Shown here: one piece after another, positions 8,940 to 32,765 of the stretch | How the letters are laid out: each line of letters opens with the position of its first letter | Position numbering within the stretch: position 1 is the first letter of the stretch | DNA from: an uncultured Bacilli bacterium | GTDB taxonomy: Bacteria; Bacillota_I; Bacilli_A; RF39; UBA660 | Length of the DNA stretch: 64,000 nucleotides | Assembly (NCBI GenBank): GCA_934163035.1 | Contig: CAKPJX010000002.1 | Location: 13,977 to 77,976, forward strand | Direction of reading: 5' to 3' | Position numbers and translations under genes: made by a program | The notes under the pieces: model-generated | Told to the model about the DNA's origin: nothing | Databases searched by the model: none | The model's input: only the letters and a program-made list of their open reading frames with translations

Positions 8940-8965
8940 ACTAACACCTCCACTAACACAGCAAC

Positions 8966-9652: not shown

Positions 9653-10928
9653 AAACTATACCAACACCACAAACTAATATAACAAGACCAATGAAATATA
9701 TAATTTGTGAAGTATTCATACCAGTGTTAGGTACTTCAGGGACATAGTCAAATTTAACTGAGAAAGGTATACTCTTAGACATTGAATTAACATCAACACC
9801 AACAATCTTTTGTTTAGCAGCGTCACCTTCTAAAAATTCATTTGCACTTTTATCATAAGCCATATATTCATAACCAACATATTCGTATCCATCAGATAAA
9901 AATTCTAAGTCTACATTAGCACCATTGCTATCAACCGAGTCAACAGGAACTCTTACATAAAATTTAGTATTAAAATCATAATATTTATTCTCATCAATAG
10001 CTTCGCCTTTTTCACCATAAACAATTACTGCACCATCTGGTGAAGTTTTGTCATTTATTTTAACTTTAAACTTTTCAGTACTAGTATTACCAGCAGTAAC
10101 TGTAATAGCAGAAGATTGATAATATTTACCATCTTCAGTTAAAGACACATCTGTACCACCTGAAACATTAAGTTTAGGTGCTGTATCGTCAGAAGTAGCA
10201 TTCATTGCTGCATCAACCAATGGTTTAACATAAGTAGTATAATAATTACAAGATTTTCCATCCCTAAGACACACTTTTTCTTCACTACCAATATTTATTT
10301 TGGTAAAACTCTTTCCAGGTTTACCAGTTGCTAAATATTTTTCTTCATAATCTGAAGAATTAGTTGCTTTAGTTTGATACAAATAATCCCACAAAGCCAA
10401 TTGAGTAATTACAGCTCGTTCTGTAAGACTAACAGTCTTCATGTCCTTATCATTATATAAAGAAGAAGCTTTATCATAATATCCATTTGCTAAAATATAT
10501 AGTACAGAATATGTCTTAGCAGAACCACCTAATTCTGAACTATCTTTTTTCCAATTTTTATAGTTTTTATAAAAAACATTAGTATCTGCTCCAATATTAT
10601 TTTCTAAGCAAAAAACTGAAGTACCATATACCTTATTTACCCAAAACAAACCAACACCAGCCTTAGAACTACCATTTTCAATAGTAACAATAGGATCACC
10701 AGTAATTAAAGTAAATTCATCCCCAAGACCATTTACAGATGGAACAGCAGCCCAAGATGGATTATTAAAGCTTGTTGCTACAAATGCAAACACTGCTACT
10801 ATTGCTATTAAAACAGAAGCAGTAACAATTCCATTTCCTTTTAGGAAACGATTTGTGGTAGACTTTTTATTATTATTATTGTCTTCCATATAAATTTTTT
10901 CCATATTAAACACCTTACCTTTATACAA
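9621..10928 (-). CDS. sortase-anchored surface adhesin with thioester domain (TED) motifs
   Basis: Signal/transmembrane segment. FCLE ([YFL]C-phi-x) and TQLALW (TQxA-phi-W) thioester-domain signatures. C-terminal VPNTG sorting signal plus a hydrophobic segment and a KPKESN tail. Confidence 0.65.
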   Translation of the reverse strand: MYKGKVFNMEKIYMEDNNNNKKSTTNRFLKGNGIVTASVLIAIVAVFAFVATSFNNPSWAAVPSVNGLGDEFTLITGDPIVTIENGSSKAGVGLFWVNKVYGTSVFCLENNIGADTNVFYKNYKNWKKDSSELGGSAKTYSVLYILANGYYDKASSLYNDKDMKTVSLTERAVITQLALWDYLYQTKATNSSDYEEKYLATGKPGKSFTKINIGSEEKVCLRDGKSCNYYTTYVKPLVDAAMNATSDDTAPKLNVSGGTDVSLTEDGKYYQSSAITVTAGNTSTEKFKVKINDKTSPDGAVIVYGEKGEAIDENKYYDFNTKFYVRVPVDSVDSNGANVDLEFLSDGYEYVGYEYMAYDKSANEFLEGDAAKQKIVGVDVNSMSKSIPFSVKFDYVPEVPNTGMNTSQIIYFIGLVILVCGVGIVYANIKPKESN

Positions 10929-10966
10929 TTATTATATCATAAAAGAATAATTTTCAAACATATTTT

Positions 10967-12193
10967 TTAATTTATTGTAAAAATACCATCAAAGTCTCTA
11001 TTAGAATCACTATCTTTTTTATAGATAGTTGCAATAACATCTCCTTTTGCTACTTTATCACCAACTAATTTATTTAAATAAATTCCAACACTATAATCAA
11101 TTTTATCTTCCTTACTCTCTCTACCAGCACCTAAACTAACAGAAAGTTTGCCTAACTTCAAAGCGTCAATATTTTTAACAATCCCATCCCTATCAGCAAA
11201 AATTTCTTGTTTATTATTGCTAACAGAAAGACTATCAATATCTCCACCTTGACATTTAACCATTTCTAAAAATTTATTATAAGCTTTTCCATTATCTATA
11301 TTTTCTATGACTAATTTTTTAGCTTCTTCATATCCTATATTTTTTCCCATACTAACCATTTCACTAGCCAGTTCAATACATAAGTTTGTTAAATTATTAT
11401 TGCCATCTTTATTTTTTAGTACAGATATAGCCTCTAAAACTTCCAAACTATTTCCAATAGCTCTTCCTAAAGGAACATTCATATCACTAATTTTAGTTCT
11501 AACCTCGCGACCATAAAAATTTCCTATTTTTATCATTAGTTCACTTAACTTTTCAGCATCTTTCATTGACTGAAGTAGTGCACCATCACCAACTTTTATA
11601 TCTATTAAGATTTTATCCGCACCAGCTGCTATTTTTTTACTCATAATACTAGATGCAATTAAAGGAATTGATGAAACTGTTGCCGTAACATCTCTTAGCG
11701 CATAAATTACTTTATCTATTGGTACTAAATTAGCTGTTTGACCTGTTACAACAACACCTATATTTCTAACCTGTTCTAATACTTCATAATCACTTAAATC
11801 TATTCTAAATCCTTTAATACTCTCTAATTTATCGATGGTACCACCAGTATATCCCAATCCTCTACCACTCATTTTAACAACAGGTACACCTAAGCTAGCA
11901 ACTATTGGAGCAATAATCAAAGTAGTCTTATCACCTATTCCACCAGTTGAATGCTTGTCAACTTTTATTCCATCAATATTAGAAAAATCCAAAACATCTC
12001 CACTTTCAATGAAAATTTTTGTTAATGCAAATACCTCATCATCATTCATTCCATTTATACAAATAGCCATCAATAAAGATGACATCTGATAATCCTTTAC
12101 ATTACCATTTAAATAACCATTAAATATAAAATAGATCTCATCATAACTAAGTGCTAAGCCTAATCTTTTTTTATTAATAATATCTACAATCAT
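10967..12193 (-). CDS. pdp: pyrimidine-nucleoside (thymidine) phosphorylase
   Basis: KHSTGGIGDKTTL phosphate-binding loop and a glycosyltransferase family-3 fold of about 400 aa. Confidence 0.9.
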   Translation of the reverse strand: MIVDIINKKRLGLALSYDEIYFIFNGYLNGNVKDYQMSSLLMAICINGMNDDEVFALTKIFIESGDVLDFSNIDGIKVDKHSTGGIGDKTTLIIAPIVASLGVPVVKMSGRGLGYTGGTIDKLESIKGFRIDLSDYEVLEQVRNIGVVVTGQTANLVPIDKVIYALRDVTATVSSIPLIASSIMSKKIAAGADKILIDIKVGDGALLQSMKDAEKLSELMIKIGNFYGREVRTKISDMNVPLGRAIGNSLEVLEAISVLKNKDGNNNLTNLCIELASEMVSMGKNIGYEEAKKLVIENIDNGKAYNKFLEMVKCQGGDIDSLSVSNNKQEIFADRDGIVKNIDALKLGKLSVSLGAGRESKEDKIDYSVGIYLNKLVGDKVAKGDVIATIYKKDSDSNRDFDGIFTIN

Positions 12194-12615
12194 ACAAGTT
12201 CCTTTCTAAATATATCAGAATCTCTAATAGTAAATCCCATGTCTTGATATAGTTTTCTTGCTTCATTTCTAAACCAACTAGAAGTAAGTTGAATATACTT
12301 TGCTTCACGAGCTTTAGCAAGATCAATTGCCATATTTAACATTGATTTAGCAATACCATTATTACGGTAATTTTTTAAGACGCATACATAATCAAAAAAA
12401 CAGATAACATCATTGGTTACAAAATCCCTCATAAAAGTAATTAACATATAACCGACAATCATATCATCAGATGTAGTTACTATCTCAATATGATTATCAT
12501 CTGAATTATCTTTTGTCTTTTCTATTGAAAAATTCTCTTTAAGTAACCTATTTACCCCAAATAAATCTTCTTTTCTATAATATCTTATATAATACCTTAT
12601 ATTCATACTCCTCAC
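12190..12615 (-). CDS. GNAT family N-acetyltransferase
   Basis: Acetyl-CoA binding motif NYRNNGIAKSML (R/Q-x-x-G-x-G/A). Confidence 0.7.
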   Translation of the reverse strand: MRSMNIRYYIRYYRKEDLFGVNRLLKENFSIEKTKDNSDDNHIEIVTTSDDMIVGYMLITFMRDFVTNDVICFFDYVCVLKNYRNNGIAKSMLNMAIDLAKAREAKYIQLTSSWFRNEARKLYQDMGFTIRDSDIFRKELV

Positions 12616-12713
12616 CTACTATAAAGTATACCATAAAAAAGAAGACTTTTTCAAAAAAAACAAATTAAATAAAGAAGGTAATTATATTAAATACTTTACC
12701 TTCTAAATAATAA

Positions 12714-13040
12714 TTAATTATCTCTCTTACTAGATAAAAATGTCACCTTCTCTGCTACAATATCCATAACATAACTCTTTTTGTCTTCATTTTCTATAAC
12801 TCTAGATTGAATTCTACCCTTTATTCCTACAATGTCTCCTTTCCCACAATATTGTGCTGTATTAGATGCAACATTTTCGAAAGCTACACAATCAACAAAA
12901 TCTGTATCATATGTTCCATCCATATTTTTAAAACTTCTAGGTATAGCTAATGATATTGTAGCAATCTTTTTTCCAGATTCACCTTTATTAATTTTAATAT
13001 TTCTAGTAAGTCTTCCAACCAAAACCACCTGATTTAACAC
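12714..13040 (-). CDS. ssb: single-stranded DNA-binding protein, short SsbB-like form without an acidic tail
   Basis: OB-fold (VVLVGRLTRN ... FVDCVAF). The likely true start is a GTG at 13038-13040, preceded by a perfect AGGAGGTGA RBS (MLNQVVLVGRL). The ORF-track start at 13091 is probably over-extended. Confidence 0.7.
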   Translation of the reverse strand: MLNQVVLVGRLTRNIKINKGESGKKIATISLAIPRSFKNMDGTYDTDFVDCVAFENVASNTAQYCGKGDIVGIKGRIQSRVIENEDKKSYVMDIVAEKVTFLSSKRDN

Positions 13041-13197
13041 CAAATCACCTCCTCTCGAAAACATAATATTAATAATTATCATTTTTTTCAAATGAAGAAT
13101 TTAACTAATTCAAGTAAAAATTTTGTCAAAAAAAAAGAAATTCCTTCTAAGAAAAATTTCTTTTTATAATCATAATAATCATCATTTAACAACTTTG

Positions 13198-14520
13198 CTA
13201 CAAATTTCTTTTTATTAACTGATTTAACTCAACTGCATATTCCATAGGTAATTCATCTCTAAATTTTTCCAAAAATCCAAGTATTATTAATTCCATTGCT
13301 CTTTCTCTATTTATTCCCCTACTCATTAAGTAAAATAAATTCTCTTCACTTATTTTTGAAACTGTCGCCTCATGTTCAATACTACTACTAACGTTGTAGC
13401 AAGAGTTAACTGGAATAGTATCACTCTTAGATAATTCATCTAAAATAAGAGTATCACATTTAACATCACTAACACTATTTGTAGCTTTTGTATCAATAAG
13501 CACTTTCCCTCTATAAGTAGCATTACCACCATTATTAGAAATACTCTTAGAAATAATATTACTCTTAGTATTTTTACCCAAATGAATCATTCTAGCTCCA
13601 CTATCTTGTTCTTGTCCATTAGAAGCAACAGAAATAGTTATACATGTACCTTTAGAATTATCACCCTTTAATACACAGCAAGGATATTTCATAGTAACCT
13701 TACTACCAATATTACCATCAATCCATTCCATAGTACCGCCATCATCAACCAAAGCTCTTTTAGTAACCAAGTTATAAACATTAGTAGCCCAGTTTTGAAC
13801 AGTTGAATATCTACATTTACTATTTTTACCAACATATATTTCAACAACTGCAGCATGTAAAGAAGATTCGCTATAAGTTGGAGCCGTACATCCCTCAACA
13901 TAATGTAGCTGGCTATTATCATCTACTATTATTAAAGTTCTCTCAAACTGTCCCATATTACGACTATTAATTCTAAAATAACTCTGTAGTGGTCTATCAA
14001 GTGTCGTATTAGGAGGTACATAAATAAAACTACCTCCACTAAAAACAGCCCCATTTAAAGCAGCAAATTTATTCTCACTATTACTTACAATTTTACCAAA
14101 GTATTTTTTAACCAAATCAGGATATTCCTTCATTGCCACTTCAACAGATGTAAAAATAACCTTTTTTTCAGTAAGTTCTTTAAGCATATTATGATAAATT
14201 ACTTCACTCTCATATTGAACTCCCATACCACCAAGATGCTTTTCACTTTCTAGTACTCCCAAAGAATCAAGTTCATCTTTAACAGGCTTTAAAACATTAT
14301 TCCAATCACTTTGAATCTTATCATCCATTTCATTTGATTTATAATAAATTATCTTATTAAAATCTAAATCAATATTAGGTCCAAAACTAGGCATATCAAG
14401 TTTTTCAAACTTACTATAACTATCAAGTCTAAAATCTTTTATCCATTCATCTTCTCTTTTTACTTTAGAAATTTCACAAATATTATTTTTATTTATTCCG
14501 ATAATTTCCACAAATATCAC
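13198..14520 (-). CDS. sufB: Fe-S cluster assembly protein SufB
   Basis: HYVEGCTAPTYSESSLHAAVVEIYV ... conserved SufB core; last gene of the sufCDSUB cluster. Confidence 0.9.
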   Translation of the reverse strand: MIFVEIIGINKNNICEISKVKREDEWIKDFRLDSYSKFEKLDMPSFGPNIDLDFNKIIYYKSNEMDDKIQSDWNNVLKPVKDELDSLGVLESEKHLGGMGVQYESEVIYHNMLKELTEKKVIFTSVEVAMKEYPDLVKKYFGKIVSNSENKFAALNGAVFSGGSFIYVPPNTTLDRPLQSYFRINSRNMGQFERTLIIVDDNSQLHYVEGCTAPTYSESSLHAAVVEIYVGKNSKCRYSTVQNWATNVYNLVTKRALVDDGGTMEWIDGNIGSKVTMKYPCCVLKGDNSKGTCITISVASNGQEQDSGARMIHLGKNTKSNIISKSISNNGGNATYRGKVLIDTKATNSVSDVKCDTLILDELSKSDTIPVNSCYNVSSSIEHEATVSKISEENLFYLMSRGINRERAMELIILGFLEKFRDELPMEYAVELNQLIKRNL

Positions 14521-14531
14521 CAGTTTCTAAT

Positions 14532-14963
14532 TTATTCTTTATTTTCTAATTTATCTATTAAACTTAAAATTGCTCTACTTGGTAGTAATACACAATTCTT
14601 TCTATTAGGTTGCTTTCCAACTTCATCGTAAACAACTAAATCTTTTAATATATCAGCATCATACTCATCTTCATTAATCATATTTTGATAATTTTTAAGT
14701 ATATTTATAGCTTCTTCTGTAGTTTTCCCTATTAATAGATTAATCATAATAGAAGCAGCTGAAGTACTAATAGCACAAGCTTCTCCATCAAATCTAATAT
14801 CTTTTATAATATTATCTTCTACTTTCATCATAAAATCCAAATTATCTATACAGCTTTCACTACTAGTATTTACTGATAAATAGCTATTATCATTAACTAA
14901 CCCCTTATTATAAGGATCTTGATAATTATCTAATATAATTTGTCTTTTTAATTCACTATCCAT
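14532..14963 (-). CDS. sufU: Fe-S cluster assembly scaffold SufU (NifU-like)
   Basis: 143 aa with conserved Cys (GEACAISTSAAS, CVLL); sits between sufS and sufB. Confidence 0.8.
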   Translation of the reverse strand: MDSELKRQIILDNYQDPYNKGLVNDNSYLSVNTSSESCIDNLDFMMKVEDNIIKDIRFDGEACAISTSAASIMINLLIGKTTEEAINILKNYQNMINEDEYDADILKDLVVYDEVGKQPNRKNCVLLPSRAILSLIDKLENKE

Positions 14964-14971
14964 AAATTCTC

Positions 14972-16177
14972 CTAAATAATAATTTTAAATATATCCTTGC
15001 TCTGTTTTAATGCTTTTACAAGTTTATCTACATCATCATGATTATTATATAAATACATACTCACTCTTACAGTATTTTTAGTATTAATTTCATCTTTTAA
15101 CATTTTAGCACAATGATTACCTGCTCTTACAAATATCTTATAATGATTTAGATAGATTGAGCTTTCTTGAGCAAAAACCCCATCTATATTAAATGCTAAT
15201 ATTCCACTATCACTATTTTTATTATATATAACTATATTGTCTATTTTTTCTAGTTGTGAAACTAGATATTTTTTCAATTCTACTTCATGTTCATGAATCT
15301 TATTAATTCCTATATTCATAATATACTTAATAGCTTCACTAAGTCCTATAACTTCCGCTATTGGTGGTGTACCAGCTTCAAATTTAATAGGTGTATCTTT
15401 CAATTCATAGCTATCATCAGACTCAAAAGATCTATTCATTCCTCCACCATACATTAAAGGATCCATTTTATCTAGTAATTCCTCTTTACCAACTAAAACA
15501 CCAACACCAGTTGGACCTAACATTTTATGCCCAGAAAAGCTTAAGAAATCAATATTGCACTTTCTAAAATCAACTTTCATATGTGGAACACTTTGAGCAC
15601 CATCTACACAGAAATAAATTCCCTTATCCTTACATATCATTCCAATATTATAAATATCTCTTACATCACCAATAACATTAGTAACATGAGCAATTGAAAT
15701 AACCTTAGTCTTAGGAGTAATACTCTTTAACACACTGTCAACAGTAAGAGAATAATTACTATCAAGTTCCATGTATTTAATTACTACCCCAATCTCTTCC
15801 TCTAGTCTTATCCATGGTAATACATTAGAAGCATGTTCAGATCTAGTAAGTAAAATTTCATCCCCTGGTTTTAAATATTTCTTCATAAAACCAAATACAA
15901 CCATATTTATAGACATTGTAGTACCACTAGTAAAAACAACTTCCTTACTACTTCTACAATTAATAAAATCTCTAACTACATCTCTTGCCCCATCATAAAG
16001 CTTATTAGTAATAACCGCTGCATCATAGTCACCCCTATGAATATTAGAAGTATGTTGTGTATAATATTTATCAATACTATCAACAACACATTTAGGTTTT
16101 AAAGTTGTAGCACCATTGTCAAAATAAACAATATCATTATCAAGCATTGAAAAATCTTCTCTATGCACACAAATCAC
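14972..16177 (-). CDS. sufS: cysteine desulfurase SufS
   Basis: Class V aminotransferase. PLP-lysine in FSGHKMLGPTGVG and catalytic Cys in RAGNHCA. Confidence 0.9.
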   Translation of the reverse strand: MICVHREDFSMLDNDIVYFDNGATTLKPKCVVDSIDKYYTQHTSNIHRGDYDAAVITNKLYDGARDVVRDFINCRSSKEVVFTSGTTMSINMVVFGFMKKYLKPGDEILLTRSEHASNVLPWIRLEEEIGVVIKYMELDSNYSLTVDSVLKSITPKTKVISIAHVTNVIGDVRDIYNIGMICKDKGIYFCVDGAQSVPHMKVDFRKCNIDFLSFSGHKMLGPTGVGVLVGKEELLDKMDPLMYGGGMNRSFESDDSYELKDTPIKFEAGTPPIAEVIGLSEAIKYIMNIGINKIHEHEVELKKYLVSQLEKIDNIVIYNKNSDSGILAFNIDGVFAQESSIYLNHYKIFVRAGNHCAKMLKDEINTKNTVRVSMYLYNNHDDVDKLVKALKQSKDIFKIII

Positions 16178-16180
16178 CTC

Positions 16181-16774
16181 CTATATTTTTTCAATTTCAT
16201 CAATAAAATCTTTTATTTTATTTTTATCAATATCCAAACTATTAATTAAAAATCCATTAAGTAAAAGTCTATATCCTTGACTCCTAGATATTCCTCTACT
16301 CATAAGATAAAATAAAATCTCATCCTTAAACTTACCAATATAAGCAGCATGATTACTATCAACATCATAATTATCAATTAATAGTTTAGGAAGTATTGTA
16401 CTCTTACCATCTACTAAATTGATAATTTGATTATCTTGATTACAAATACATTTACTACTACTAGAAATAACTTTTCCACAAACATCATAATCTAATTTAT
16501 TATCATACACATTAACACCATGATTATATAATTCACTATGTGTATTACTAGCCAAATGATTTACACTTATCTTAAAACTATTATTATCATAATTAATATT
16601 ATTATAATAATAGTCTAATCTAGCACCTTCCTTAACTAAATTAATTTCTACATCACTACTACTATTAATAGAAAAATGATAAATTATAGTATCTTGATCT
16701 ATATCATATTTATAATTACTCACTTTATTATTATCTATTATATATAATATTCTACTCATTAGTATCATTTCCAA
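16181..16774 (-). CDS. sufD: short SufD-like Fe-S assembly protein (SufBD family C-terminal domain)
   Basis: Position in the operon and a C-terminal SufBD-like segment (AAYIGKFKDEILFYLMSRGISRSQ). At 197 aa it is about half the usual SufD length. Confidence 0.5.
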   Translation of the reverse strand: MEMILMSRILYIIDNNKVSNYKYDIDQDTIIYHFSINSSSDVEINLVKEGARLDYYYNNINYDNNSFKISVNHLASNTHSELYNHGVNVYDNKLDYDVCGKVISSSSKCICNQDNQIINLVDGKSTILPKLLIDNYDVDSNHAAYIGKFKDEILFYLMSRGISRSQGYRLLLNGFLINSLDIDKNKIKDFIDEIEKI

Positions 16775-17540
16775 TCATAACATTAACCCCATAGCCACTC
16801 TTATCAATTTCAAAAGCTAATTTCATATCACCAGTCTTTTGAATAACTCCATCATTCATAATATGAACAAAATCAGGTTTTATATATTCTAATATCCTAG
16901 GGTAATGAGTAATTATTAAAACAGATGTATTTACTGACTCAGATAAGTAATTATTAATATTTTTACAAATAATTCTCAAGCTATCTACATCTAATCCTGA
17001 ATCTAACTCATCTAAAATAATTAGCTTAGGTTTTAAAAATAACATCTGCAAAATCTCATTTTTCTTTTTTTCACCACCACTAAATCCTGAATTTAATGAT
17101 CGATGCATCATACTTTTATCTAGTCCAACTGCTTCCATGTTTTTTTCCATATCTTTTACAAAACTAAAAAGATTAACTTTTTCACCAGTAATTTCATTCT
17201 TAGCAGTTCGAATAAATTCACTATTTGAAACGCCTTCAATAATCATAGGATCCTGCATACATAAAAAGATACCTAGCTTAGCTCTTTCATCAACTTCCAA
17301 ATCATTTATATTAACACCATTAAATAAAATCTCTCCAGAATTTATCTTATACTTATAATTTCCCATTATAGTCTTAGAAAGTGTACTTTTACCTGTACCA
17401 TTAGGTCCCATAATAGCATGAACTTCACCAGGTTTTATATTAAGAGATACGCCCTTTAAAATTTCATCTTCACTATCATTACAGTCATCAATAACACTAA
17501 CATGTAAATCTTTAATTTCTAACATAAGATCACCTTCCAT
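16752..17540 (-). CDS. sufC: Fe-S cluster assembly ATPase SufC
   Basis: ABC ATPase with Walker A GPNGTGKST, LSGGEKKK signature and LILDELDSGLD. The true start is probably the internal ATG at 17525 (MLEIKDLHV), which has a GGAAGGTGA RBS. Confidence 0.9.
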   Translation of the reverse strand: MEGDLMLEIKDLHVSVIDDCNDSEDEILKGVSLNIKPGEVHAIMGPNGTGKSTLSKTIMGNYKYKINSGEILFNGVNINDLEVDERAKLGIFLCMQDPMIIEGVSNSEFIRTAKNEITGEKVNLFSFVKDMEKNMEAVGLDKSMMHRSLNSGFSGGEKKKNEILQMLFLKPKLIILDELDSGLDVDSLRIICKNINNYLSESVNTSVLIITHYPRILEYIKPDFVHIMNDGVIQKTGDMKLAFEIDKSGYGVNVMIGNDTNE

Positions 17541-17672
17541 TCATATATTATACCAAATCTATTAGGATTGTTGCACATAAACCGAACTTATTTTACCACA
17601 AATAACTACAATCACCAAATAAAATAAAATGAAAAAGATGTCAGCAACAACCAACATCTTAACAAAATTATC

Positions 17673-19214
17673 TTACATAGTTTTAATTTTAGAATACCCT
17701 CTATCATAATCATCATCTAACAATGATTGAGCTTTACTAAGTAATTTAACAAGTTCATTTTTACCAGCAACTTGTGATCTCAAAGATTTAATTTCTTCTC
17801 GTTGCTTTTCAATCATATTCTGCATCTTACTAACTTCATCTTCCATACTTTTATATTCTCTAAATAAACTCTCATACCTAGTAACCAATTTCTTATTTTC
17901 TTCAAAAGCCTTACGTCTAAAATCAGTAAGTTTTTTTAATTTTTCTTCATAATCCGCCATTGTATGTCTTTGTTCTTCTATTTGACTAATCATCTTATTC
18001 ATAACAACAGCTGTATCTTCAAAAACCGTATCACGACTATCATCACTATAATCATCATCTAAAGAAAAATCTCTTTTCTTTTCAATAGGTCTTTTATCAT
18101 TAAGTATATCAGCAAAATTAAAATTATCTGAATCCTTAGCTTCCTCTTCAAATATATTTTTAGGATTATTATCTATATCATAGGTATAATCGCTTTTATT
18201 ATCATCTATACTTCTAAAAGAATCATCATTATTATTATTAATCTCATCATTAACAGCAGTAAATTCATCAAGACTACCATCATTAGTAGCTATTTTATCA
18301 AAAGAAACAGGAGCAATCTCCCTCTCATCAATATCATCATCTTCAACTGTTTTTTCCTCAATTGATGGATTACTAATAGTGTTATCAGTTACAGTATTTT
18401 TTTCTTCAACAGGAGAACTATCAACACTAGAAACATCTGGAACAATAGCCTCACTATTTGCATTATTTTCATCACCAAGTTCCTTAACTTCACTTGAAAC
18501 ATTTTGTACTGGTGTAAATATATTTTGAGCAGACTCATTATCCATAGCTTCATCAATCATCTTTTTTTCTACTTTAAAATCTCTAACATCCAAATCATTA
18601 TCATCTGTTTTAATATTTTCATTTACTTCTTTAACTAAAGGATATTCAATAATTTCAGATTCAACTGTATTACCAGATAAGAAAATAGACTTATCATTAA
18701 TACCAACAAAACTGAAAAATTTATCATCACATAAATTATTACCATTTAAATCAGCTAGCTTAACTTCTGAAAACTGATCATTAAAAACGAACTTACCTTT
18801 AGGCCCCATTTTACTATACATTTTTTCTTTAATGGCTGCCGATGTAGAAACCAATTTTGTTGCTGCTAAAGGATCCTTTCTCATCGCAATAGTATCAAGA
18901 ACACTCTTAGTAATAGGATTTGAATTTTCAATTAATAAGAATTTATCATTAACTGGTTTAATAGATTTGTTTACAAAGGGCACAATAACATTACCATCAA
19001 TATCAATAACACCAATAGATAAAGCCACTACTAAAGGATCTATAGCCTCCACTAAAGCCGTAGATGCTACAATGTAACCATTACTTAATTTTTCTCCATC
19101 TAAAAAGTAATATGTTTTTCCATCTTCAGTAGTTCCATATGTACATAAGATATCACTACGATCCTTATATTTTACTAGTCCCTTTTGAACTCGCATCATT
19201 CTAACACCACCCAT
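17673..19214 (-). CDS. hypothetical protein: N-terminal globular domain, long acidic disordered linker, C-terminal coiled coil
   Basis: 513 aa. Residues about 230-400 are D/E/N/S-rich low complexity. The last about 100 aa have heptad-like KLKKLTDFRRKAFEEN ... IKSLRSQV. No family recognised. Confidence 0.4.
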   Translation of the reverse strand: MGGVRMMRVQKGLVKYKDRSDILCTYGTTEDGKTYYFLDGEKLSNGYIVASTALVEAIDPLVVALSIGVIDIDGNVIVPFVNKSIKPVNDKFLLIENSNPITKSVLDTIAMRKDPLAATKLVSTSAAIKEKMYSKMGPKGKFVFNDQFSEVKLADLNGNNLCDDKFFSFVGINDKSIFLSGNTVESEIIEYPLVKEVNENIKTDDNDLDVRDFKVEKKMIDEAMDNESAQNIFTPVQNVSSEVKELGDENNANSEAIVPDVSSVDSSPVEEKNTVTDNTISNPSIEEKTVEDDDIDEREIAPVSFDKIATNDGSLDEFTAVNDEINNNNDDSFRSIDDNKSDYTYDIDNNPKNIFEEEAKDSDNFNFADILNDKRPIEKKRDFSLDDDYSDDSRDTVFEDTAVVMNKMISQIEEQRHTMADYEEKLKKLTDFRRKAFEENKKLVTRYESLFREYKSMEDEVSKMQNMIEKQREEIKSLRSQVAGKNELVKLLSKAQSLLDDDYDRGYSKIKTM

Positions 19215-20275: not shown

Positions 20276-20389
20276 TTAATAAGCAATTACGCCGCCTAAG
20301 ATAATAGCAAGTAAAATATATAAAATTATAATTATTACGTAGCCACTTCTTCTAGGAGTAGCAACTGGTTTATTTTCTGGACAAGACAT
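20276..20389 (-). CDS. tiny transmembrane protein, YjcZ-like (37 aa)
   Basis: MSCPENKPVATPRRSGYVIIIILYILLAIILGGVIAY, with a perfect AAGGAGG RBS 8 nt upstream of the ATG. Resembles the Bacillus tiny-TM sporulation protein family (consensus FALIVVLFILLIIVG). Below the ORF-track size cut-off. Confidence 0.55.
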   Translation of the reverse strand: MSCPENKPVATPRRSGYVIIIILYILLAIILGGVIAY

Positions 20390-24671: not shown

Positions 24672-24851
24672 TTATCTAAATTGACAGCAAGAGCCACATT
24701 GAACATTACTTACAGTATTTTCTTCACTGCAAGAATATTGTGGTCTATAAGTATGTTTATAAACATGATGATTTATTATTCTGGTATGTATTGGACATAC
24801 ATGCCCTTGCCCTTTCTTGATAGATATTTCATCTTTTTTAATTATTTTCTT
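24672..24851 (-). other. start-less coding segment: putative 3' segment of a split CotD-like His/Cys-rich spore coat gene
   Basis: Open frame after a TAG, with no ATG/GTG/TTG start or RBS. Encodes KKIIKKDEISIKKGQGHVCPIHTRIINHHVYKHTYRPQYSCSEENTVSNVQCGSCCQFR. GC content is locally elevated. The N/H/H-x-x-H-x-Y-x-P and terminal CC motifs recall the inner coat protein CotD (memory-based). Confidence 0.3.
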
Positions 24852-25288
24852 CTATTTCTTTTTCTACATCCTCTGGCGCAGTAGTATTAATAACATTAAC
24901 TACACCTATTATATTAGGAACAACTTTAAATCCACCAACATTATATCTAGGATTTTCTTCATCACTAGTATTTCTTTTTAATATCTTATTCATTTCAATT
25001 ATCATATCTTTAGTTAATAAATTATCAATATTATCTAACATATAGTCAAATAACTTAAAATGATTTTTAGATTCAATTAAATCATCTAACTTTATTAAAA
25101 CATCACTTTCAGGAATAAAAGAAGATGTATCAAATATTGCTTCAGTTTGTTCATTAGTTAATCTACTACCTTCTATCTTATTTGAATTATAAGCAAAATT
25201 AACTTGCGAATAATGATATATATTACCTTTAAATTTAGATCCCTTTTGTTTAATTAATTCATTTTTAATTTTATTTATATCAATAAAT
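24838..25288 (-). pseudogene. Fic/Doc family gene, N-terminal part only (truncated before the HPFx[DE]GNGR motif)
   Basis: Fic_N-like NSNKIEGSRLTNEQTEAIFD, then FKLFDYMLDN ... NKILKRNT ... NVGGFKVVPNIIG. The frame lacks an ATG start (strong GAAAGGAG RBS, then ATT) and ends before the Fic catalytic motif. Confidence 0.5.
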
Positions 25289-25319
25289 TAATCTCCTTTC
25301 AAATTATAATACATATTTG

Positions 25320-26030
25320 ACTTAATGGACATTCTTCACAATTCTTTTTATTACAAAAGGAATTAACTAATTGCCATAAATATTTATCTATACCACTTGG
25401 ATTGATATTCAACTCTCTCCAACATTAACATAAGTATCAGACAATTTTACAATATCATTATTTGAAAGATTAGTTGTATCAATTATATTTGTTAAATAAC
25501 TAATTTCAATATCATGTCTATCTATTGGGATAGAATTTACATTCTCCTTAAAATTACAGATATTAGAGCCACATTATTAATAAACCACCCGTTTTTTTGT
25601 CCATAACCTTTAATTACTTTTATAAACTGATTTAATTCATTAATATCTTTCATTGTTTTTAAATAACTTAAAATATTATCATATTTAAGTAATTCATTAG
25701 ATATATTAATCCATTTTTTAGTCGCAACATTAGGATATCTTGGATGAATATTTTTCACAATAATACTATGTAATTCCGCCTCTTTCATTTGACTAACATA
25801 TTTAGGACAAAATATACTAGGATATTTTTCATAGGTATTAATTAAATTATTGTGATAAATTTTAGAACGCATTCCATAATCTAGTAGACAAGAATAAAAC
25901 ATGTATAAACAATATTCATTAGTACCATAAGGTATACTTCTTGGAAAATTAACACTTGCTAATTCTCGTTCATTAACAAAATGCCTTTAGTTTGTATCTA
26001 TTTTTCTTAAAGTTTTTAGCCCACCATAAA
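25320..26030 (-). pseudogene. decayed gene remnants spread over three frames, including the 121-aa ORF at 25537-25902
   Basis: Consecutive open segments in different frames (... NEYCLYMFYSCLLDYG ... KGYGQKNGWFINN / SIPIDRHDIEISYLTN ... / IDKYLWQLVNSFCNKKNCEECPLSQIC). None has a proper start and stops occur in all frames upstream. Origin unknown. Confidence 0.35.
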
Positions 26031-26137
26031 TGTCTCCCTATTTTTGATAGAATAAGATTTAAAAATTGATTTATCTTCCAACTTTCTTATTTATTAAAAA
26101 AGAACGTTCTAATAATATATAACATTACATCATTATT

Positions 26138-27697
26138 TTAATTAACTATATCAAAATTAACTATAACATTTATAGACTTATCATCAAATATTTCAATCCT
26201 ATCAATTAAACAAACTATTAACTCTCTACTAAAATCTCTCATAAATAAAAAATCATTAACATATTTTATCATTATTTTGTCCCTAAATTTATCATTATAA
26301 ATAATATTATTTAGTTCATTATATTTTCTTTTTATAGTATCAAGTTCACCTTCTAATCTTATTTTTATTCTTTCATATTGTTCCAAAGTAATTTTTTTAT
26401 TTAATTTATCTAAATAAACAGTATCTAGATTATCATTAATTTGCTCTATCCTAGTATTAATCAACTCTAATTCTCTTTTACCATTATTTTGATTACTTTT
26501 ATTCAAATTATTTAAAACAGTACTCCTAATTTTATCTCTATCAATATATTTAATAAATCTATCAACTAAAGAACTAATAATTACTTTTTCCATTTCATCA
26601 TAATTATTCGAATGAGTTGTACATAATTTTTGCCTCATATAAGTCCTATAATAATTACAAATAGTATAACACCTATTATCCGTCTTTCTTCTAGAAGTTA
26701 TTGAAATTTTATGACCACAATCACCACAATACAAAAGTCCATCCAATAAATGGTTTTCTTTTTTCTCACTTCTTCCTACATTTTTAGGTATCCTTTTTTG
26801 CACCTCATAAAATATTTCTTTATCAATAATAGCTTCATGAGTATTTTCTACAATTATATAATCTTTAGGATTATTTCTAACAACTTTTTTAACTTTATAA
26901 TTTATTTTACTTCTTCTATTCTGCACCATATCTCCAATATACATCCTGTTAGTTAATATATCTCTTACTGTTTTAGAATGCCACAGTCCATATTTTAAGT
27001 TATAATTACTTTTCCATTCAAAACTATAATATTGTGCTGGTGTTTTTATGCCTTCATTAGTTAACTTTTTTGCTATTTTGAAAAATGACAATCCATCTAA
27101 ACACATATCATAGATTGTTTTAACAATTATGGCTTGTTCTTCATTAATAACTAAGTGATTTTTATCATTAGTATCCTGGTCATACCCAAATGGAGTTCTA
27201 CCTCCCACCCATTTACCTTCTTTTTGCTTTGCTTTCAAACTAGCTCTTATCTTTTTAGAAATATCCTTTGCATACATATCATTCATTATTGCTTTAAATG
27301 GCGCTATGTCATTATTTGAATTATCTAAGAATGTATCAATATTATCAGTCACCGCAATATACCTAACATTATGTTTAGGAAAATATTTTTCAATTAAACT
27401 ACCAGTGCCAATATAATCCCTACCTAATCTTGACATATCTTTAGTAATAACCATATTAACTCTTCCTAATTCTATATCACCTAGTAATCTATTAAAAGCT
27501 GGTCTATCAAAACTAGTACCAGAATATCCGTCATCAATATAAATATCATATATATCTAAATTATTTTCATCTACATACTGAAGTAATAAACTCTTTTGGT
27601 TAGTAATACTCTCACTTTCATAAACTTTATCATCATCCTCACGAGATAATCTTATATAAAGACCAACACTATATTTTTCCAAGAGACTTATCACCAT
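26138..27697 (-). CDS. large serine recombinase (SpoIVCA/phage serine-integrase type)
   Basis: N-terminal resolvase catalytic domain (VGLYIRLSREDDDK ... SITNQKSLL ... YIDDGYSGTSFDRPAFNRLL ... SRLGRD), recombinase domain, Cys-rich zinc-ribbon (CGDCGHK ... C ... C) and a C-terminal coiled coil; 519 aa. Confidence 0.9.
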   Translation of the reverse strand: MVISLLEKYSVGLYIRLSREDDDKVYESESITNQKSLLLQYVDENNLDIYDIYIDDGYSGTSFDRPAFNRLLGDIELGRVNMVITKDMSRLGRDYIGTGSLIEKYFPKHNVRYIAVTDNIDTFLDNSNNDIAPFKAIMNDMYAKDISKKIRASLKAKQKEGKWVGGRTPFGYDQDTNDKNHLVINEEQAIIVKTIYDMCLDGLSFFKIAKKLTNEGIKTPAQYYSFEWKSNYNLKYGLWHSKTVRDILTNRMYIGDMVQNRRSKINYKVKKVVRNNPKDYIIVENTHEAIIDKEIFYEVQKRIPKNVGRSEKKENHLLDGLLYCGDCGHKISITSRRKTDNRCYTICNYYRTYMRQKLCTTHSNNYDEMEKVIISSLVDRFIKYIDRDKIRSTVLNNLNKSNQNNGKRELELINTRIEQINDNLDTVYLDKLNKKITLEQYERIKIRLEGELDTIKRKYNELNNIIYNDKFRDKIMIKYVNDFLFMRDFSRELIVCLIDRIEIFDDKSINVIVNFDIVN

Positions 27698-27902
27698 CTG
27701 AAAATAAAGAAGAAGTGATTCTAAAATTTCTTTTTAATTTTCTACTCAAAAAATCAATCAATATATCATTGATATCTTTTTTTTGATTAGAAATATAATT
27801 AATTTTATATTTATCCATAATAAGCACCTCACTTAAATGTATGGATAAAAAAACAAATTTAGTAACAAATAATAAAAACACTCTAAAAAATAGAATGTTC
27901 AT
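27669..27902 (-). CDS. small ORF between the methyltransferase and the recombinase (possible accessory or regulatory protein)
   Basis: 77 aa, co-oriented, overlaps the recombinase start by 29 nt. No homology recognisable. Confidence 0.25.
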   Translation of the reverse strand: MNILFFRVFLLFVTKFVFLSIHLSEVLIMDKYKINYISNQKKDINDILIDFLSRKLKRNFRITSSLFSDGDKSLGKI

Positions 27903-27919
27903 AAATAAAAAGTCAATAT

Positions 27920-28768
27920 CTAAAATGTATCTTTATTTTTAAAATTAGTAATTATTACTTCTTCTACATTACCTCTTTTACTGCCATTAGCATTTATATT
28001 TCTTTTTGCCTCTATTAAATGAATATTATACCCTTTATACAATTCATTAATAAGTATAGTATTATGATTTGAAAGCATTACATAAACACCTCTAGCATCC
28101 AATTCTTTAAATACTTTAGCTAGTCTTCTTTGTTCATCTTTATTAAATCCCTCTTCAGTATAACTATTAAATGTATTAGTATCAGAATCATATGGAGGAT
28201 CAAAATAAACAAAGTCTCCCTTTTTAGCAGTACTAACAGCTTCTTCAAAATCAACACTTAAAATCTTAATATCATTCATAGTTAAATAATTACTAACTGT
28301 TATTAAATTACTACCTTCATAAGTATTAATTTTAAGTTTCTTCCCAAAAGGTACATTAAATTCATTCTTACTATTAACTCTATAAAGTCCATTAAAACAT
28401 GCCTTATTTAAATAAATAGTACGAGCCGCTCTAGTATAATCAGATAATCTATTATAAGAAGCCTTATTTCTATCCTTATTTCTAATCTCATAGTAAAATT
28501 CTTCTGAGTGTTGAGTCTCATAATGATTTAAAACACTACACATCTTTTTAAATTTATTCAAATCACATAAGCATCTATATACATTCATAAGCTCCATATT
28601 GGAATCATTAATAACAGCTTTCTTAGGAGATAATTCAAATAATAATGCTCCTCCACCAACAAAAGGTTCATAATATGTATCAAATTCATCCGGAACATAT
28701 TTTTTTAATTTATCTATAATTTGTCTTTTTCCACCAGCCCATTTAACAAATGGTTTTCCTTTAAACAT
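27920..28768 (-). CDS. DNA adenine methyltransferase, Dam family (alpha-class N6-adenine methyltransferase)
   Basis: N-terminal KWAGGKRQ ... YYEPFVGGGALLF (motif X/I) and C-terminal YFDPPYDSD (DPPY motif IV). Order and length (282 aa) are typical of GATC-type Dam enzymes. No adjacent intact restriction enzyme. Confidence 0.9.
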   Translation of the reverse strand: MFKGKPFVKWAGGKRQIIDKLKKYVPDEFDTYYEPFVGGGALLFELSPKKAVINDSNMELMNVYRCLCDLNKFKKMCSVLNHYETQHSEEFYYEIRNKDRNKASYNRLSDYTRAARTIYLNKACFNGLYRVNSKNEFNVPFGKKLKINTYEGSNLITVSNYLTMNDIKILSVDFEEAVSTAKKGDFVYFDPPYDSDTNTFNSYTEEGFNKDEQRRLAKVFKELDARGVYVMLSNHNTILINELYKGYNIHLIEAKRNINANGSKRGNVEEVIITNFKNKDTF

Positions 28769-28889
28769 TCAACTACCTCCATCATAAGTACTTAGTACTA
28801 AAAATCATATATATAGTATATCATATAAAAAACATAAAGAACTAACTAAATTAATCACAATAAAGACATAATAGATCTATCATAAATTA

Positions 28890-29111
28890 TCATACTTGTG
28901 GTACTTCATGAACGATAGTTCTATGAACGCATTTTTCTTGCACTGCCTCACTTATAGGTGAAGAGTATCCAGCATTTTGAACAGACTGATTTTCAGCATA
29001 GTTCATCATATTAATATCAACATCCATATTATTATCAACAACATTATTGTTACCAACAACAGAAGAATCAAAATCGAAATTTGGCATATTAGTCATACCT
29101 TGATCAAACAT
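28890..29111 (-). CDS. small protein, putative 5' segment of the split CotD-like gene (73 aa from the ATG at 29109-29111)
   Basis: GGAGG RBS 11 nt upstream of ATG MFDQGMTNMPNF ... The N/D/S-rich region ends ... EKCVHRTIVHEVPQV, directly followed by TGA TAA at the edge of the recombinase block. The ORF-track start at 29189 is probably over-extended. Confidence 0.4.
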   Translation of the reverse strand: MFDQGMTNMPNFDFDSSVVGNNNVVDNNMDVDINMMNYAENQSVQNAGYSSPISEAVQEKCVHRTIVHEVPQV

Positions 29112-29213
29112 ATTATAAATACCTCCTCTATTGTATAGTATGTCAGAAGAATTTATTAGCCACGATAAAAACCCAAAAAAATACAACAATCATAAAGACA
29201 GTTGTATCTGTAA

Positions 29214-30571: not shown

Positions 30572-30598
30572 AAGAAAAAAAAACTGCAAAAGCAGTTT
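30572..30598 (-). terminator. intrinsic terminator after the HerA-like gene
   Basis: Minus strand: AAACTGCTTTTGCAGTTT hairpin followed by T9. Confidence 0.55.
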
Positions 30599-32765
30599 AT
30601 TCAGAAAGACTAACCAAAGGAACTCCAGTATCCGTTTGTGGCATTGACGAACCGAAATCATTAACAGGTGTATTATTAATAATACTTGGTGTAGAAAAAG
30701 ATGCATTACCAACACTAGGACTAGAATCATTCATAACAAAATAATCATTGTTAGAAGAATTTAATGATGAAACTTCAGGCATAGCACCTTGAGGTATAGT
30801 ATTAACAGGACTAATATTGGCAATTTGACTTGAAGCCATATTACTGTCGGTATCAAGTTGACCAATACTAGGAGTGCTTTCAAAATTATTGTTTATAGAA
30901 TGATTATAATCAAAAATAGGAGAACTATCACTAATAGTACTATTATTTACGGAATTATTATATCCAGAATTATTCTCCTGTTCATATGTAACATTTGCAG
31001 TATTAGTATTAGGATTACCATTCCATATTGTAACAACATCACAGTTACCACTCCATGGAGCAGGATTAGGCATCTCCATCTTAACAATCAATGGTATTCT
31101 AAAAGCCATACCAAAGCCCAAACAAGTACCAGCTTGTAATGTTTTCTGTTTTTGAACAATTTCATCACTAATATTTGGAACCATTTTTCTAATATAATCA
31201 ACATCAACAGGGTGGTTCATTTTAAATATCAAGAAATTTGAACACTGTGAAATAACAGTATCAGAAAGTTCAACTGGTCTTTGTGAAATAAGTCCCAAAA
31301 TAACACCGTACTTACGGCCCTCTTTAGCAATACGTTCAAATATATTATAACCAATCAAAAATCTATCAGTATCATTTTGAATGTATCTATGAGCTTCTTC
31401 AACAATAATATGAAAAGGTATACTAGCTCTTTGCTTCAATCCCTTAGCAAACTCAAATACAAGTCTTGAATAAATCTTTGTAATAACCTTAGCAAAGTCA
31501 TCATCAACATCATCTAAATTAATATTTATAATTTGAAACTTTCTACCATTATCAAGTATCATTGAAGATAAATAAGTTTCAAGTGACACATAATTAGGAT
31601 AATCAAAATACTTAGCATTATCACCAACAATTAATTCATGTAATCTAACTTTAATAGTTACAGCATCACCATAAGTATTCTCATTTCTAAGCCATCCTTC
31701 ACTAATTAAAGTAAAGTTTAAAGCCTTCTCCAAAGTATCCAAAGTATAGTAAACATCTTTCTTTGGTTCATATGAATCAAGCTCTTCTTTTATAAATGAA
31801 GATACATACTCAGTAAGTAAAACACTCTCTGTAAATTGACCTTGTTTATCAATTAAAAAACACTCTCTAAATTTTCTCGTATATCCAATTCCTTGAACAA
31901 CAGCCTCTAAATTAAATTGTTCTGTAGAACAACTAGCTAATATAGAAAAGATTTCATTCCTTTTATTAGGAGAAGTTTCATTAGTATATAAAATAGTCAT
32001 AATAGCTTTAGCAATAAGATGATTTTTATAACTATTAGCATCCATATCTTCCTGTGAAAAAACCAAAGCTAACTTTAACATTCTCTCTATTATTGGAAGT
32101 TGTGAATGATTAGTAGCTTGAAGAAGCAATGCAAGATCTGTATGGTTAAGTAAAAATATTGGTAATCTTAATTTTTCCCCAGCACTATCAACTTCATTTG
32201 TACTATATAATCTATAATTATAACTTGAATTAATACTATTTAAATTATTAAAAGCATTATAATATTCGCCTGATGAATCAAATAATAAAATATTAGCTTT
32301 ATATGGAAAAAGTCTATTATCATGAAACATATTTTGGAAAAGTCTAGAAATACCACAACTCTTACCAGATCCACTGTTACCAAATATAGCAAAATGATTA
32401 CTAAAGAAATTGTTAACATCTAAAAATACAGGATAATCATTATAAAAGGGACTAACTCCAAGTTTCATATACCCATTAGTATCTCTACCTACAATCATAG
32501 GTATTTCAGACTGTTCTATTACCCTAATTTTAGCATCCAAAGACGGTTTTCTAATTGTTCCACCTAACAACTTACCATTAACAATCTCACCTAAAAATCT
32601 AGCTTTAACAAGGTTGCCATCTAAATCATCAACCTCTCCAAGAATTTTTTTCTTATCATCCTCAAAAATAATATGCAAGTTCATTAAATTCTGAGTTAAA
32701 GCCACTCCCTCTTTTAATTTTATATTTGCTCCATGATCACTAATATAGACAATTCTATCAAACAT
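30597..32765 (-). CDS. HerA/FtsK-superfamily (DUF87-like) P-loop ATPase with a long C-terminal disordered tail
   Basis: N-terminal beta-barrel-like region. Walker A AIFGNSGSGKS, Walker B HIIVEEAHRY, then GRKYGVILGLISQRPVELSDTVISQCSNFLIFKMNHPVD, the typical HerA sensor/arginine-finger block. The last about 170 aa are N/S/T-rich low complexity. It has its own AGGGG RBS. Confidence 0.7.
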   Translation of the reverse strand: MFDRIVYISDHGANIKLKEGVALTQNLMNLHIIFEDDKKKILGEVDDLDGNLVKARFLGEIVNGKLLGGTIRKPSLDAKIRVIEQSEIPMIVGRDTNGYMKLGVSPFYNDYPVFLDVNNFFSNHFAIFGNSGSGKSCGISRLFQNMFHDNRLFPYKANILLFDSSGEYYNAFNNLNSINSSYNYRLYSTNEVDSAGEKLRLPIFLLNHTDLALLLQATNHSQLPIIERMLKLALVFSQEDMDANSYKNHLIAKAIMTILYTNETSPNKRNEIFSILASCSTEQFNLEAVVQGIGYTRKFRECFLIDKQGQFTESVLLTEYVSSFIKEELDSYEPKKDVYYTLDTLEKALNFTLISEGWLRNENTYGDAVTIKVRLHELIVGDNAKYFDYPNYVSLETYLSSMILDNGRKFQIININLDDVDDDFAKVITKIYSRLVFEFAKGLKQRASIPFHIIVEEAHRYIQNDTDRFLIGYNIFERIAKEGRKYGVILGLISQRPVELSDTVISQCSNFLIFKMNHPVDVDYIRKMVPNISDEIVQKQKTLQAGTCLGFGMAFRIPLIVKMEMPNPAPWSGNCDVVTIWNGNPNTNTANVTYEQENNSGYNNSVNNSTISDSSPIFDYNHSINNNFESTPSIGQLDTDSNMASSQIANISPVNTIPQGAMPEVSSLNSSNNDYFVMNDSSPSVGNASFSTPSIINNTPVNDFGSSMPQTDTGVPLVSLSE

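Follow-up and report, generated by a model that had tools for sequence, protein, structure and literature searches.

The stretch of DNA considered here (the window) comprises 64,000 nucleotides of a contig from an uncultured Bacilli bacterium of the RF39 lineage (CAKPJX010000002.1, positions 13,977 to 77,976), and the feature of interest is an intervening element with a large serine recombinase that lies, on the minus strand, between two pieces of a gene for a small His/Cys-rich, spore coat-like protein. The upstream piece is read as a 73-aa open reading frame (ORF, 28890-29111), which has a ribosome-binding site (RBS, AGAGGAGG) and a C-terminal end, ...EKCVHRTIVHEVPQV, that is followed by TGA TAA. 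About 4 kb further along the same strand, the frame 24851-24672 has neither a start codon nor an RBS; its translation is KKIIKKDEISIKKGQGHVCPIHTRIINHHVYKHTYRPQYSCSEENTVSNVQCGSCCQFR* (also given as ...KGQGHVCPIHTRIINHHVYKHTYRPQYSCSEENTVSNVQCGSCCQFR). These two frames had been noticed in an original prediction made from the letters alone, and they are present as it described them, as is the content that it listed between them, namely a large serine recombinase, a Dam methylase, a small ORF and decayed genes.

In the 5′ fragment of the CotD-like gene (28890..29111, minus strand), host sequence extends up to a CA at 28898-28897, and the element supplies the third base of Q72, V73 and the stop codon of the 73-aa ORF. 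The 3′ fragment (24672..24803, minus strand) holds codons 72-114, (H)VCPIHTRIINHHVYKHTYRPQYSCSEENTVSNVQCGSCCQFR, and the stop codon, without a start or RBS of its own. When both are joined in silico at the shared CA, a check that the prediction had proposed, 4,095 bp are removed and one continuous, in-frame ORF for a 114-aa protein results, with the junction ...HEVPHVCPIHT (His72) and not ...EVPQV-CPIHT. With this joined product as query, 678 homologues were found among 5.8 billion protein clusters. The top matches are uninterrupted proteins of 105-116 aa that are 60-82% identical at 100% query coverage (E = 1e-60), and the alignment to the orthologues passes the junction without a gap (...HEVPHVCPIHTRIINHH...). 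Judged by these scores, the similarity to uninterrupted proteins is far beyond chance. Additionally, a scan of one genome per species found the gene order ffh - gene - rpoZ - recX in 80 related loci, all of them from metagenome-assembled genomes of uncultured gut bacteria of the “Bacilli / Tenericutes / Mycoplasma sp. CAG:877” type; the contiguous orthologues that the prediction had asked for in related genomes occupy the same position between ffh and rpoZ. The two pieces are confirmed as the N- and C-terminal parts of one conserved gene, which the element interrupts at codon 72 and whose 114-aa His/Cys-rich product has the conserved core PI.E....RC..R...HEVPH(V/I)CP.HT.IINHH.Y.H.Y.P.YTCSEEN...N...G.CC.F.

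The likeness to the spore coat protein CotD, which had also been proposed, holds clearly for distant relatives of the gene but not for the window protein itself. The Pfam family PF11122 (Spore-coat_CotD) is matched by 17 of 41 more distant full-length relatives (best E-value, 7.5e-8), whereas the matches in 39 of 44 orthologues are sub-threshold, none of the 44 having an E-value below 5e-4, and the rebuilt window protein obtains 18.3 bits (E = 0.0034), under the gathering threshold of 22 bits. Because of this last score, the gene is called CotD-like and not CotD: going by the profile scores, the name is justified as that of a distant relationship, membership of the Pfam CotD family is not established, and the function of the protein in the coat is one that we infer. 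A search of 1.84 billion cluster representatives with the family profile gave 151 members only, many of which are N-fragments ending in HEVPQV*, HEVPQE* or HEVPHV*, and others C-fragments that start with element-derived residues (..KGQGHVCPI..). Consequently, split alleles are both common and taxonomically broad.

Besides the window, 16 of the 80 loci have the gene split at the same codon by a recombinase-bearing insert, with recombinases 54-89% identical to that of the window, and at one locus (L077) the edge of the contig falls exactly at the split codon. The same truncated ORF is found on at least 18 independent contigs, and a scan of metagenomes for the element end motif revealed more attachment sites of the attL type (the junction at the 5′ fragment), also within a gene variant that is more distant and linked to ffh. 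In the 15 complete split loci, window included, the inserts measure 2,728-8,986 bp, and every insert gene is oriented like the host gene. All that these inserts have in common is the recombinase, a small ORF that we call F1 and the element ends; the variable cargo includes Dam, Fic, a MazE/MazF pair, NERD plus a zinc ribbon, Bro-N, RhuM, an MA-type peptidase and an 874-aa protein that was taken for a P-type ATPase from its sequence. In-silico excision at the CA gives an intact ORF in all 15, and an exact look-up among 15 billion proteins found the predicted His-junction protein verbatim for 7 of these 15 split species and none of five alternative joins downstream of the CA. As a separate observation, six independent short Logan contigs with an N-fragment of the L073 type (L134-L139) all end about 91 nt past the ORF, which suggests a branch of the assembly graph just inside the element, from co-existing variants or heterogeneous occupancy.

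Empty sites are on record for a sister species (L024) that is about 92% identical to the window in nucleotide sequence. Three contigs (L113-L115) are 99.6-99.85% identical to the occupied L024 locus over 6 kb per flank and lack 3,910 bp, and the left and right alignments overlap by exactly two nucleotides, CA. Read from these alignments, the overlap is the footprint of a serine-recombinase reaction.

With these data, the idea that the block is a decayed prophage remnant between two independent small genes, or an artefact of assembly, becomes so improbable that it can be set aside. Only the decayed genes in the block speak for it, whereas the pieces belong to one conserved protein, the same structure recurs in many independent assemblies, and the uninterrupted homologues, the 15 of 15 rebuilt ORFs and the L024 empty sites refute it. 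The outcome that the prediction itself had named as fatal, unrelated fragments and no contiguous gene in relatives, is ruled out by the same uninterrupted orthologues. A phage origin of the element was rejected: domain scans found no phage genes in it, no entry of the phage collection shares more than 36% identity with the recombinase, and a motif scan of viral contigs did not find the element end motif.

The attachment (att) sites were defined by comparing the junctions of 16 elements. In the window, attL (28875..28930, minus strand) is made up of the host half-site ...CATGAAGTACCA, the CA at 28898-28897, a 14-nt spacer (AGTATGATAATTTA) and the arm TGATAGAT (28882-28875), while attR (24770..24825, minus strand) has the arm ATCTATCA (24825-24818), a 14-nt spacer (AGAAAGGGCAAGGG), the CA at 24803-24802 and the host half-site TGTATGTCCAATACATAC... 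The two arms are the inverted repeats that had been expected at about 24.84 and 28.89 kb. For the family, attL is ...CATGAAGTNCCN-CA-AGTGTGATAATTTA-TGATAGAC and attR is GTCTATCA-AAAAAGGGCAAGGA-CA-TGTNTGTCC..., and the attP site rebuilt from them is a near-perfect dyad, AGTCTATCA-N14-CA-N14-TGATAGACT (TCTATCA-N14-CA-N14-TGATAGA), with arms of 8-9 bp and 14 nt on each side of the CA. In the window, the outer 8-bp arms are both perfect, and so are the 14-nt spacings. The predicted excision junctions are an attB of GAAGTACCACATGTATGTCC (...CATGAAGTACCACATGTATGTCCAATAC...) and an attP of GGGCAAGGGCAAGTATGATAA (...AAAGGGCAAGGGCAAGTATGATAATTTATG...), sites of about 48 bp with a CA core, in line with the central 2-bp crossover and the dyad-symmetric att sites of about 40-50 bp that characterise large serine recombinases. 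An intact attP, AGTCTATCAAAAAAGGGCAAGGA-CA-AGTGTGATAATTTATGACAGACT, occurs in nature between two tandem units of L064. That locus (10207-19193, junction near 14319) holds two differing units, with recombinases 82% identical, the second having integrated beside the first though no attB remains there.

The most likely crossover, by sequence comparison, is the CA at 28898-28897 / 24803-24802, which makes codon 72 a CAT (His), as in every intact orthologue. The overlapping AC would fit sequence identity equally well, and symmetry favours CA. A crossover within the shared GTATG (the CA sits three bases upstream) was considered and rejected on four grounds: the junction residue of every intact orthologue is His and not Gln; attP is symmetric about the CA; the same-species empty site has a T where attL has an A; and public data hold no product with a Gln or Glu junction, as against the seven with His.

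The element itself (24802..28896, minus strand; 4,095 bp) has 24% G+C, compared with 27.6% for the window, and all of its genes are on the strand of the host gene. From attL onwards, it carries as cargo an orphan N6-adenine DNA methyltransferase of the Dam family (27920..28768, minus strand; PF02086, 2.4e-60; TIGR00571, 8e-83), then F1 (27669..27818, minus strand), a 49-aa ORF (MDKYKINYISNQKKDINDILIDF...) that overlaps the start of the recombinase and is a candidate recombination directionality factor, and then the large serine recombinase (26138..27697, minus strand; 519 aa), with Resolvase, Recombinase and Zn_ribbon_recom domains. Directly past the recombinase stop lies a degenerate internal attP remnant (26018..26051, minus strand), TCTATCAAAAATAGGGAGA-CA-[about 10 bp missing]-TTTATGGTGGGCT, in which the left half and the CA are recognisable and the sequence that follows the right arm is retained. 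The rest (24838..25902, minus strand) is decayed cargo of a second unit, without a recombinase of its own: an ORF with a weak DUF7208 match (orf121, 25902-25537, minus strand), a 37-aa fragment (25412-25299, minus strand) and a truncated Fic gene (about 25283-24838, minus strand), which has ATT in place of its original start codon ATG and breaks off ahead of the HPFxDGNGR motif. As its layout is read here, the element is a fossil tandem, with an active unit 1 (Dam, F1 and recombinase) and a decayed unit 2, and, as the internal attP is ruined, the whole block must be excised as a single piece.

The Dam gene (82-88% identity among homologues) behaves like a roaming cassette. It is part of the element in both the window and L024, and in other species it lies outside the coat-like gene: downstream of an intact one in L002 (10433-11278), L004 (12390-13226), L005 (11275-12111) and L006, upstream of the gene in L065 (5281-6108) and downstream of a split gene in L069 (11065-11901). 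The right attP arm of Dam-carrying elements contains GATC (TGATAGATCT). Motifs resembling the left half of attP in loci that combine an intact gene with Dam (L002, L004 and L005) were dismissed as chance matches within coding sequence.

The recombinase passes the thresholds of PF00239, PF07508 and PF13408, and in 16 of 16 copies R16, S18 (within a YIRLS motif), D87, R90 and R93 are invariant, as are the zinc-ribbon cysteines; the C-terminal coiled-coil region was judged from sequence only. With pN/pS ratios (non-synonymous over synonymous changes) of 0.16-0.49, these recombinases look functional. The nearest solved structures are the TnpX catalytic domain (E = 2.7e-26) and SprA of SPbeta (E = 5e-21), the closest full-length one, and TndX, aligned over 97% of the length, is 33.7% identical. 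None of the NCBIfam models reaches its cut-off; the XisF model gives 96 bits of the 375 needed. Consequently, the description as a large serine recombinase was right and the label “SpoIVCA-type” too specific, since the nearest annotated proteins are TndX, TnpX and SprA; by these comparisons, the enzyme is not close to any characterised one. In several IMG/VR contigs (L102, L103, L107, L108 and L110-L112), four to six consecutive genes for mutually divergent large serine recombinases, 26-41% identical to that of the window, are found within 5-10 kb.

F1 immediately precedes the recombinase in each of the 16 units, abuts or overlaps the recombinase start and encodes 33-65 aa with the consensus MDKYKINYIYNE.NDINDIFIKVLNKELKKY. 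Independent gene callers also predict it, as a 49-aa gene, and it is under purifying selection, like the recombinase and both gene halves. F1 also precedes relatives of the recombinase with 52-73% identity in other genomic contexts (other flanks, IMG/VR contigs); the F1-recombinase module must therefore be older and more widespread than this target site. For instance, the contig L097, labelled viral, has an F1 and a recombinase 73% identical to that of the window (7825-10760) with the usual left attP half and its CA; the flank past this half is unrelated, which means that the target site is another one or that the end has decayed, and the cargo comprises a retron-type reverse transcriptase (read from the translated ORF), two Fic genes and a Bro-N gene. 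Its position and its size, close to that of known directionality factors (quoted at 53 and 72 aa), make F1 a candidate for this role.

It could be argued that this genome is a special case in which the element has become fixed and dead, with a broken recombination system and a coat gene that is permanently disrupted. The decayed tandem, the degenerate internal attP and the dead cargo fit this view, the attP half-sites of the window deviate slightly from the family consensus, and no empty-site allele is on record for its species. However, the recombinase is full length with all catalytic residues, F1 is intact, the outer 8-bp arms and the 14-nt spacings are perfect, and the gene halves are 99% identical in protein sequence to those of the L024 species, where the site is demonstrably active or polymorphic. 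We therefore consider a dead element very unlikely.

The predicted promoter region of the split gene (29134..29181, minus strand) has a -10 box, CATACTATA (29142-29134), that matches the CATAnnnTA of sigma-K-type promoters, preceded at 16 nt by a conserved GTGGCTAA block and, at a greater distance, by a GGGT/GGGC box. Almost every one of the roughly 80 loci has GGGC...GT(A/G)GCTAA-N-CATAnnnTA-N-AGAGGAGG upstream of the gene. The GGGC/GGGT box (29163-29181, minus strand, and its equivalents in about 80 loci), about 40 nt upstream of the -10, could be a binding site for a regulator of the GerE or SpoIIID type. A -10 of the form CATAnnnTA is common to sigma-E and sigma-K promoters in C. difficile and B. 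subtilis, whose -35 elements differ (ATA vs AC) (PMC3789822). Before F1 and the recombinase there is a promoter-like block (27825..27866, minus strand), TTACTAAA-N-TTTATC-CATACATTT (27843-27835), followed by the RBS AAGTGAGGTG; the same arrangement (TTACTAAA-N-TTTATC-CATAnnTTT) is seen in about 10 of 14 aligned units, despite recombinase identities of only ~70-90%, and its -10 resembles those of sigma-E/K promoters. No intrinsic terminator was predicted between the coat-gene promoter and the recombinase, by a scan that was not enriched over shuffled sequence, so that read-through from the host promoter is a second possible route of expression for F1 and the recombinase. That scan, for sigma-70 promoters and terminators, is uninformative in such AT-rich DNA.

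The window also contains sporulation genes. The start of spoIVA (63616 to the window end; PF09547, 1.4e-60) and spoVIF (55379-55618; PF14069, 4e-24) are both present, as the prediction had said; of its YjcZ-like genes, a 37-aa ORF (20276-20389, minus strand; MSCPENKPVATPRRSGYVIIIILYILLAIILGGVIAY) may be one, and it has no Pfam hit. The genus CAG-877, which shares its name with the relative L005 (Mycoplasma sp. CAG:877), belongs to the GTDB order RF39, family UBA660, and RF39 bacteria are predicted spore formers (PMC10868615). Two other neighbours may be mentioned: directly upstream of ffh, a 722-aa HerA/DUF87-type ATPase (30597-32765, minus strand) with a long Asn/Ser-rich C-terminal tail, which scores far under the NCBIfam cut-offs for anti-phage HerA, and, between spoVIF and spoIVA (55723-63443, minus strand), a 2,035-aa ORF and a 538-aa protein with four cadherin-like domains.

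On a tree of ffh and RecX, split loci are scattered among intact ones, and the identity between recombinases does not correlate with that between hosts (Spearman -0.13); for instance, the recombinases of L066 and L072 are 87% identical and their hosts 70%. The elements must therefore move between species, always to the same site. Vertical inheritance of a single ancient insertion was rejected, as the split loci are scattered on the host tree and the recombinase tree disagrees with it.

At the same time, both halves of the gene are under purifying selection. Between the window and L024, both split and with the same element architecture, the gene shows six synonymous differences and one non-synonymous (pN/pS 0.04); the value for the split genes of L068 and L070 is 0.22, and the C-fragment has a pN/pS of 0.20 among split loci vs 0.18 among intact ones. 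A gene that is selected while physically split must be rebuilt regularly, and this is the strongest argument, albeit an indirect one, for programmed excision.

The element could also be an ordinary integrative element, without a developmental programme, for which the coat gene is an attachment site only; its carriers would do without a dispensable protein, and excision would be sporadic. The horizontal mobility fits such an element, as does the cargo of typical selfish or defence modules (MazEF, Fic, NERD, RhuM, Bro-N and Dam); in addition, occupied and empty sites coexist within a species as a strain polymorphism, and none of the samples listed had both forms. By contrast, a dispensable gene is hard to reconcile with the ratio of six synonymous changes to one in the split gene, with the retention of both halves, promoter and RBS in 15 of 15 split genes, and with a start-less C-fragment that is as constrained in split as in intact loci. 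Moreover, all tested serine-recombinase elements in mother-cell genes are excised in sporulation (PMC5595907, PMC6957869, PMC10747680). We regard an ordinary element as unlikely, but as an account that deserves attention.

The reading that we favour, with a probability of about two in three, is that of an intervening element of the skin/SPbeta/gin kind, as the prediction had proposed, which is excised in the sporulating mother cell to rebuild the coat-like gene. Excision in the mother cell is suggested jointly by the purifying selection, the predicted sigma-K-type promoter, the intact recombination machinery and the precise empty sites of the sister species. In this model, F1 and the recombinase would be expressed in the mother cell from the CATA-type promoter before F1 or by read-through from the coat promoter, and F1, acting as a directionality factor, would steer the recombinase to attL x attR excision. 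As a consequence, a circle of 4.1 kb would be released and the coat gene rebuilt, to be expressed late in spore-coat assembly. The forespore would retain the element, which would thus be inherited.

Several points weigh against this model. Excision in sporulating cells is something that we infer for an uncultured organism; the window's own species lacks an empty-site allele on record, as already counted in favour of a dead element; and, among the places listed, no sample has both the occupied and the empty form, so that the empty sites of the sister species may reflect strain polymorphism and not necessarily developmental excision. A degenerate attP pattern had 0 matches in viral_contigs and 0 in metagenome_contigs, and such scans for an attP circle are uninformative rather than negative, since assemblies would miss a rare circle. 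F1 has neither a Pfam match nor detectable similarity to known directionality factors, and, if it is always co-translated with the recombinase, the route of integration would be left unexplained. Finally, the sigma factors were assigned from short motifs in DNA of 27% G+C, and the rebuilt protein scores below the CotD threshold given above.

Excision in the mother cell, if it is accepted, invites a broader interpretation, which we put forward tentatively and consider somewhat less probable than its opposite. The elements would be the smallest self-contained “soma-excised” mobile cassettes known, the shortest needing only 2.7 kb for attP, a directionality factor of a new type (F1) and a serine integrase. 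A late coat gene would serve them as a safe harbour in uncultured RF39 gut bacteria, with excision in the mother cell hard-wired through a sigma-E/K-type promoter or read-through, and exchangeable defence, toxin-antitoxin and methylase cargo would be ferried between species through the germ line.

The findings matter in several respects. A structural coat-type gene would join the list of interrupted sporulation genes, and RF39, an uncultured lineage of human and animal guts with reduced genomes, would be a new host for such elements. Purifying selection on a coat gene that is split is an argument for a sporulation programme still at work in RF39, so far predicted from gene content only; maintenance of the element would, if true, be the first functional evidence of RF39 sporulation. 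The family is also a source of very small serine-integrase units in which the attP and attB sites are defined and F1 is a candidate directionality factor of a new kind; such a system may prove useful in genome engineering. Moreover, it shows clearly how cargo can be swapped and units arranged in tandem.

Elements that intervene in sporulation genes include skin in sigK, SPbeta in spsM, phi3T in kamA, vfbin in spoVFB, gin in gerE and yin in yabG, and the genes known to be interrupted are sigK, spsM, spoVFB, spoVR, gerE, yabG, kamA and spoVK. A literature search found no report of an element in a cotD-type gene or in RF39, and the prediction that the split gene and its element were unreported thus agrees with the searchable literature, which holds no cotD-type interruption. 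The nearest annotated sequence relatives of the recombinase, TndX of Tn5397 and TnpX of Tn4451, also cut at a 2-bp crossover, but they belong to conjugative or mobilisable transposons with a looser choice of target and no developmental link. The fdxN element of Anabaena is similar in that a serine recombinase, XisF, removes it from a gene in a terminally differentiating cell, the heterocyst; it differs in phylum, cell type and accessory factors (XisH/XisI), and the recombinase described here scores far under the XisF family cut-off.

Among the sporulation elements, skin in sigK is prophage-derived and measures 14.6-48 kb, with SpoIVCA/Skr in B. subtilis and CD1231/CD1234 in C. difficile (PMC5025042). 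A large serine recombinase and a small directionality factor excise it in the mother cell and the germ line keeps it, the same scheme as proposed here; however, its target is a sigma-factor gene that gates the whole late programme and not a structural coat-type protein, and its recombinases are probably only distantly related to the present one. The SPbeta and phi3T units in spsM and kamA have the order attL-rdf-int-attR and are part of active phages of about 130 kb, and phi3T expresses its integrase constitutively, sporulation or SOS inducing only the rdf gene, for the directionality factor (PMC5499854, PMC6957869). The modular unit, portable between elements, is the same as here: a large serine integrase, att sites and a small rdf gene, for which F1 is the candidate; unlike in phi3T, the candidate rdf and the integrase are probably co-expressed here, as F1 overlaps the start of the latter. 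The gin element in gerE of Bacillus cereus ATCC 10987 has a GirC recombinase and a GirX factor; it is 28.6 kb long, with three genes for recombinases and a core of 9 bp, and has been shown to be excised (PMC5595907). Like the elements described here, it is not a phage, it splits a very small gene (one of the mother cell, as is probable here too), it carries a serine recombinase plus a small accessory factor (a candidate one here), and its short common core is flanked by inverted repeats, precise excision rebuilding the gene. By contrast, gin was studied in a cultured Bacillus, whereas here the host is of the uncultured RF39 type, the target gene is another one, excision is predicted, the elements measure 2.7-9 kb with one recombinase (two in tandem in L064), and the core has 2 bp. 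The system is closest in spirit to gin, with its non-phage nature and tiny target, and to the SPbeta-type attL-rdf-int-attR unit, and we conclude that it is a real, previously unreported and very small intervening element, probably one of those removed during sporulation, distinctive in its size, swappable cargo, spread among species and host lineage.

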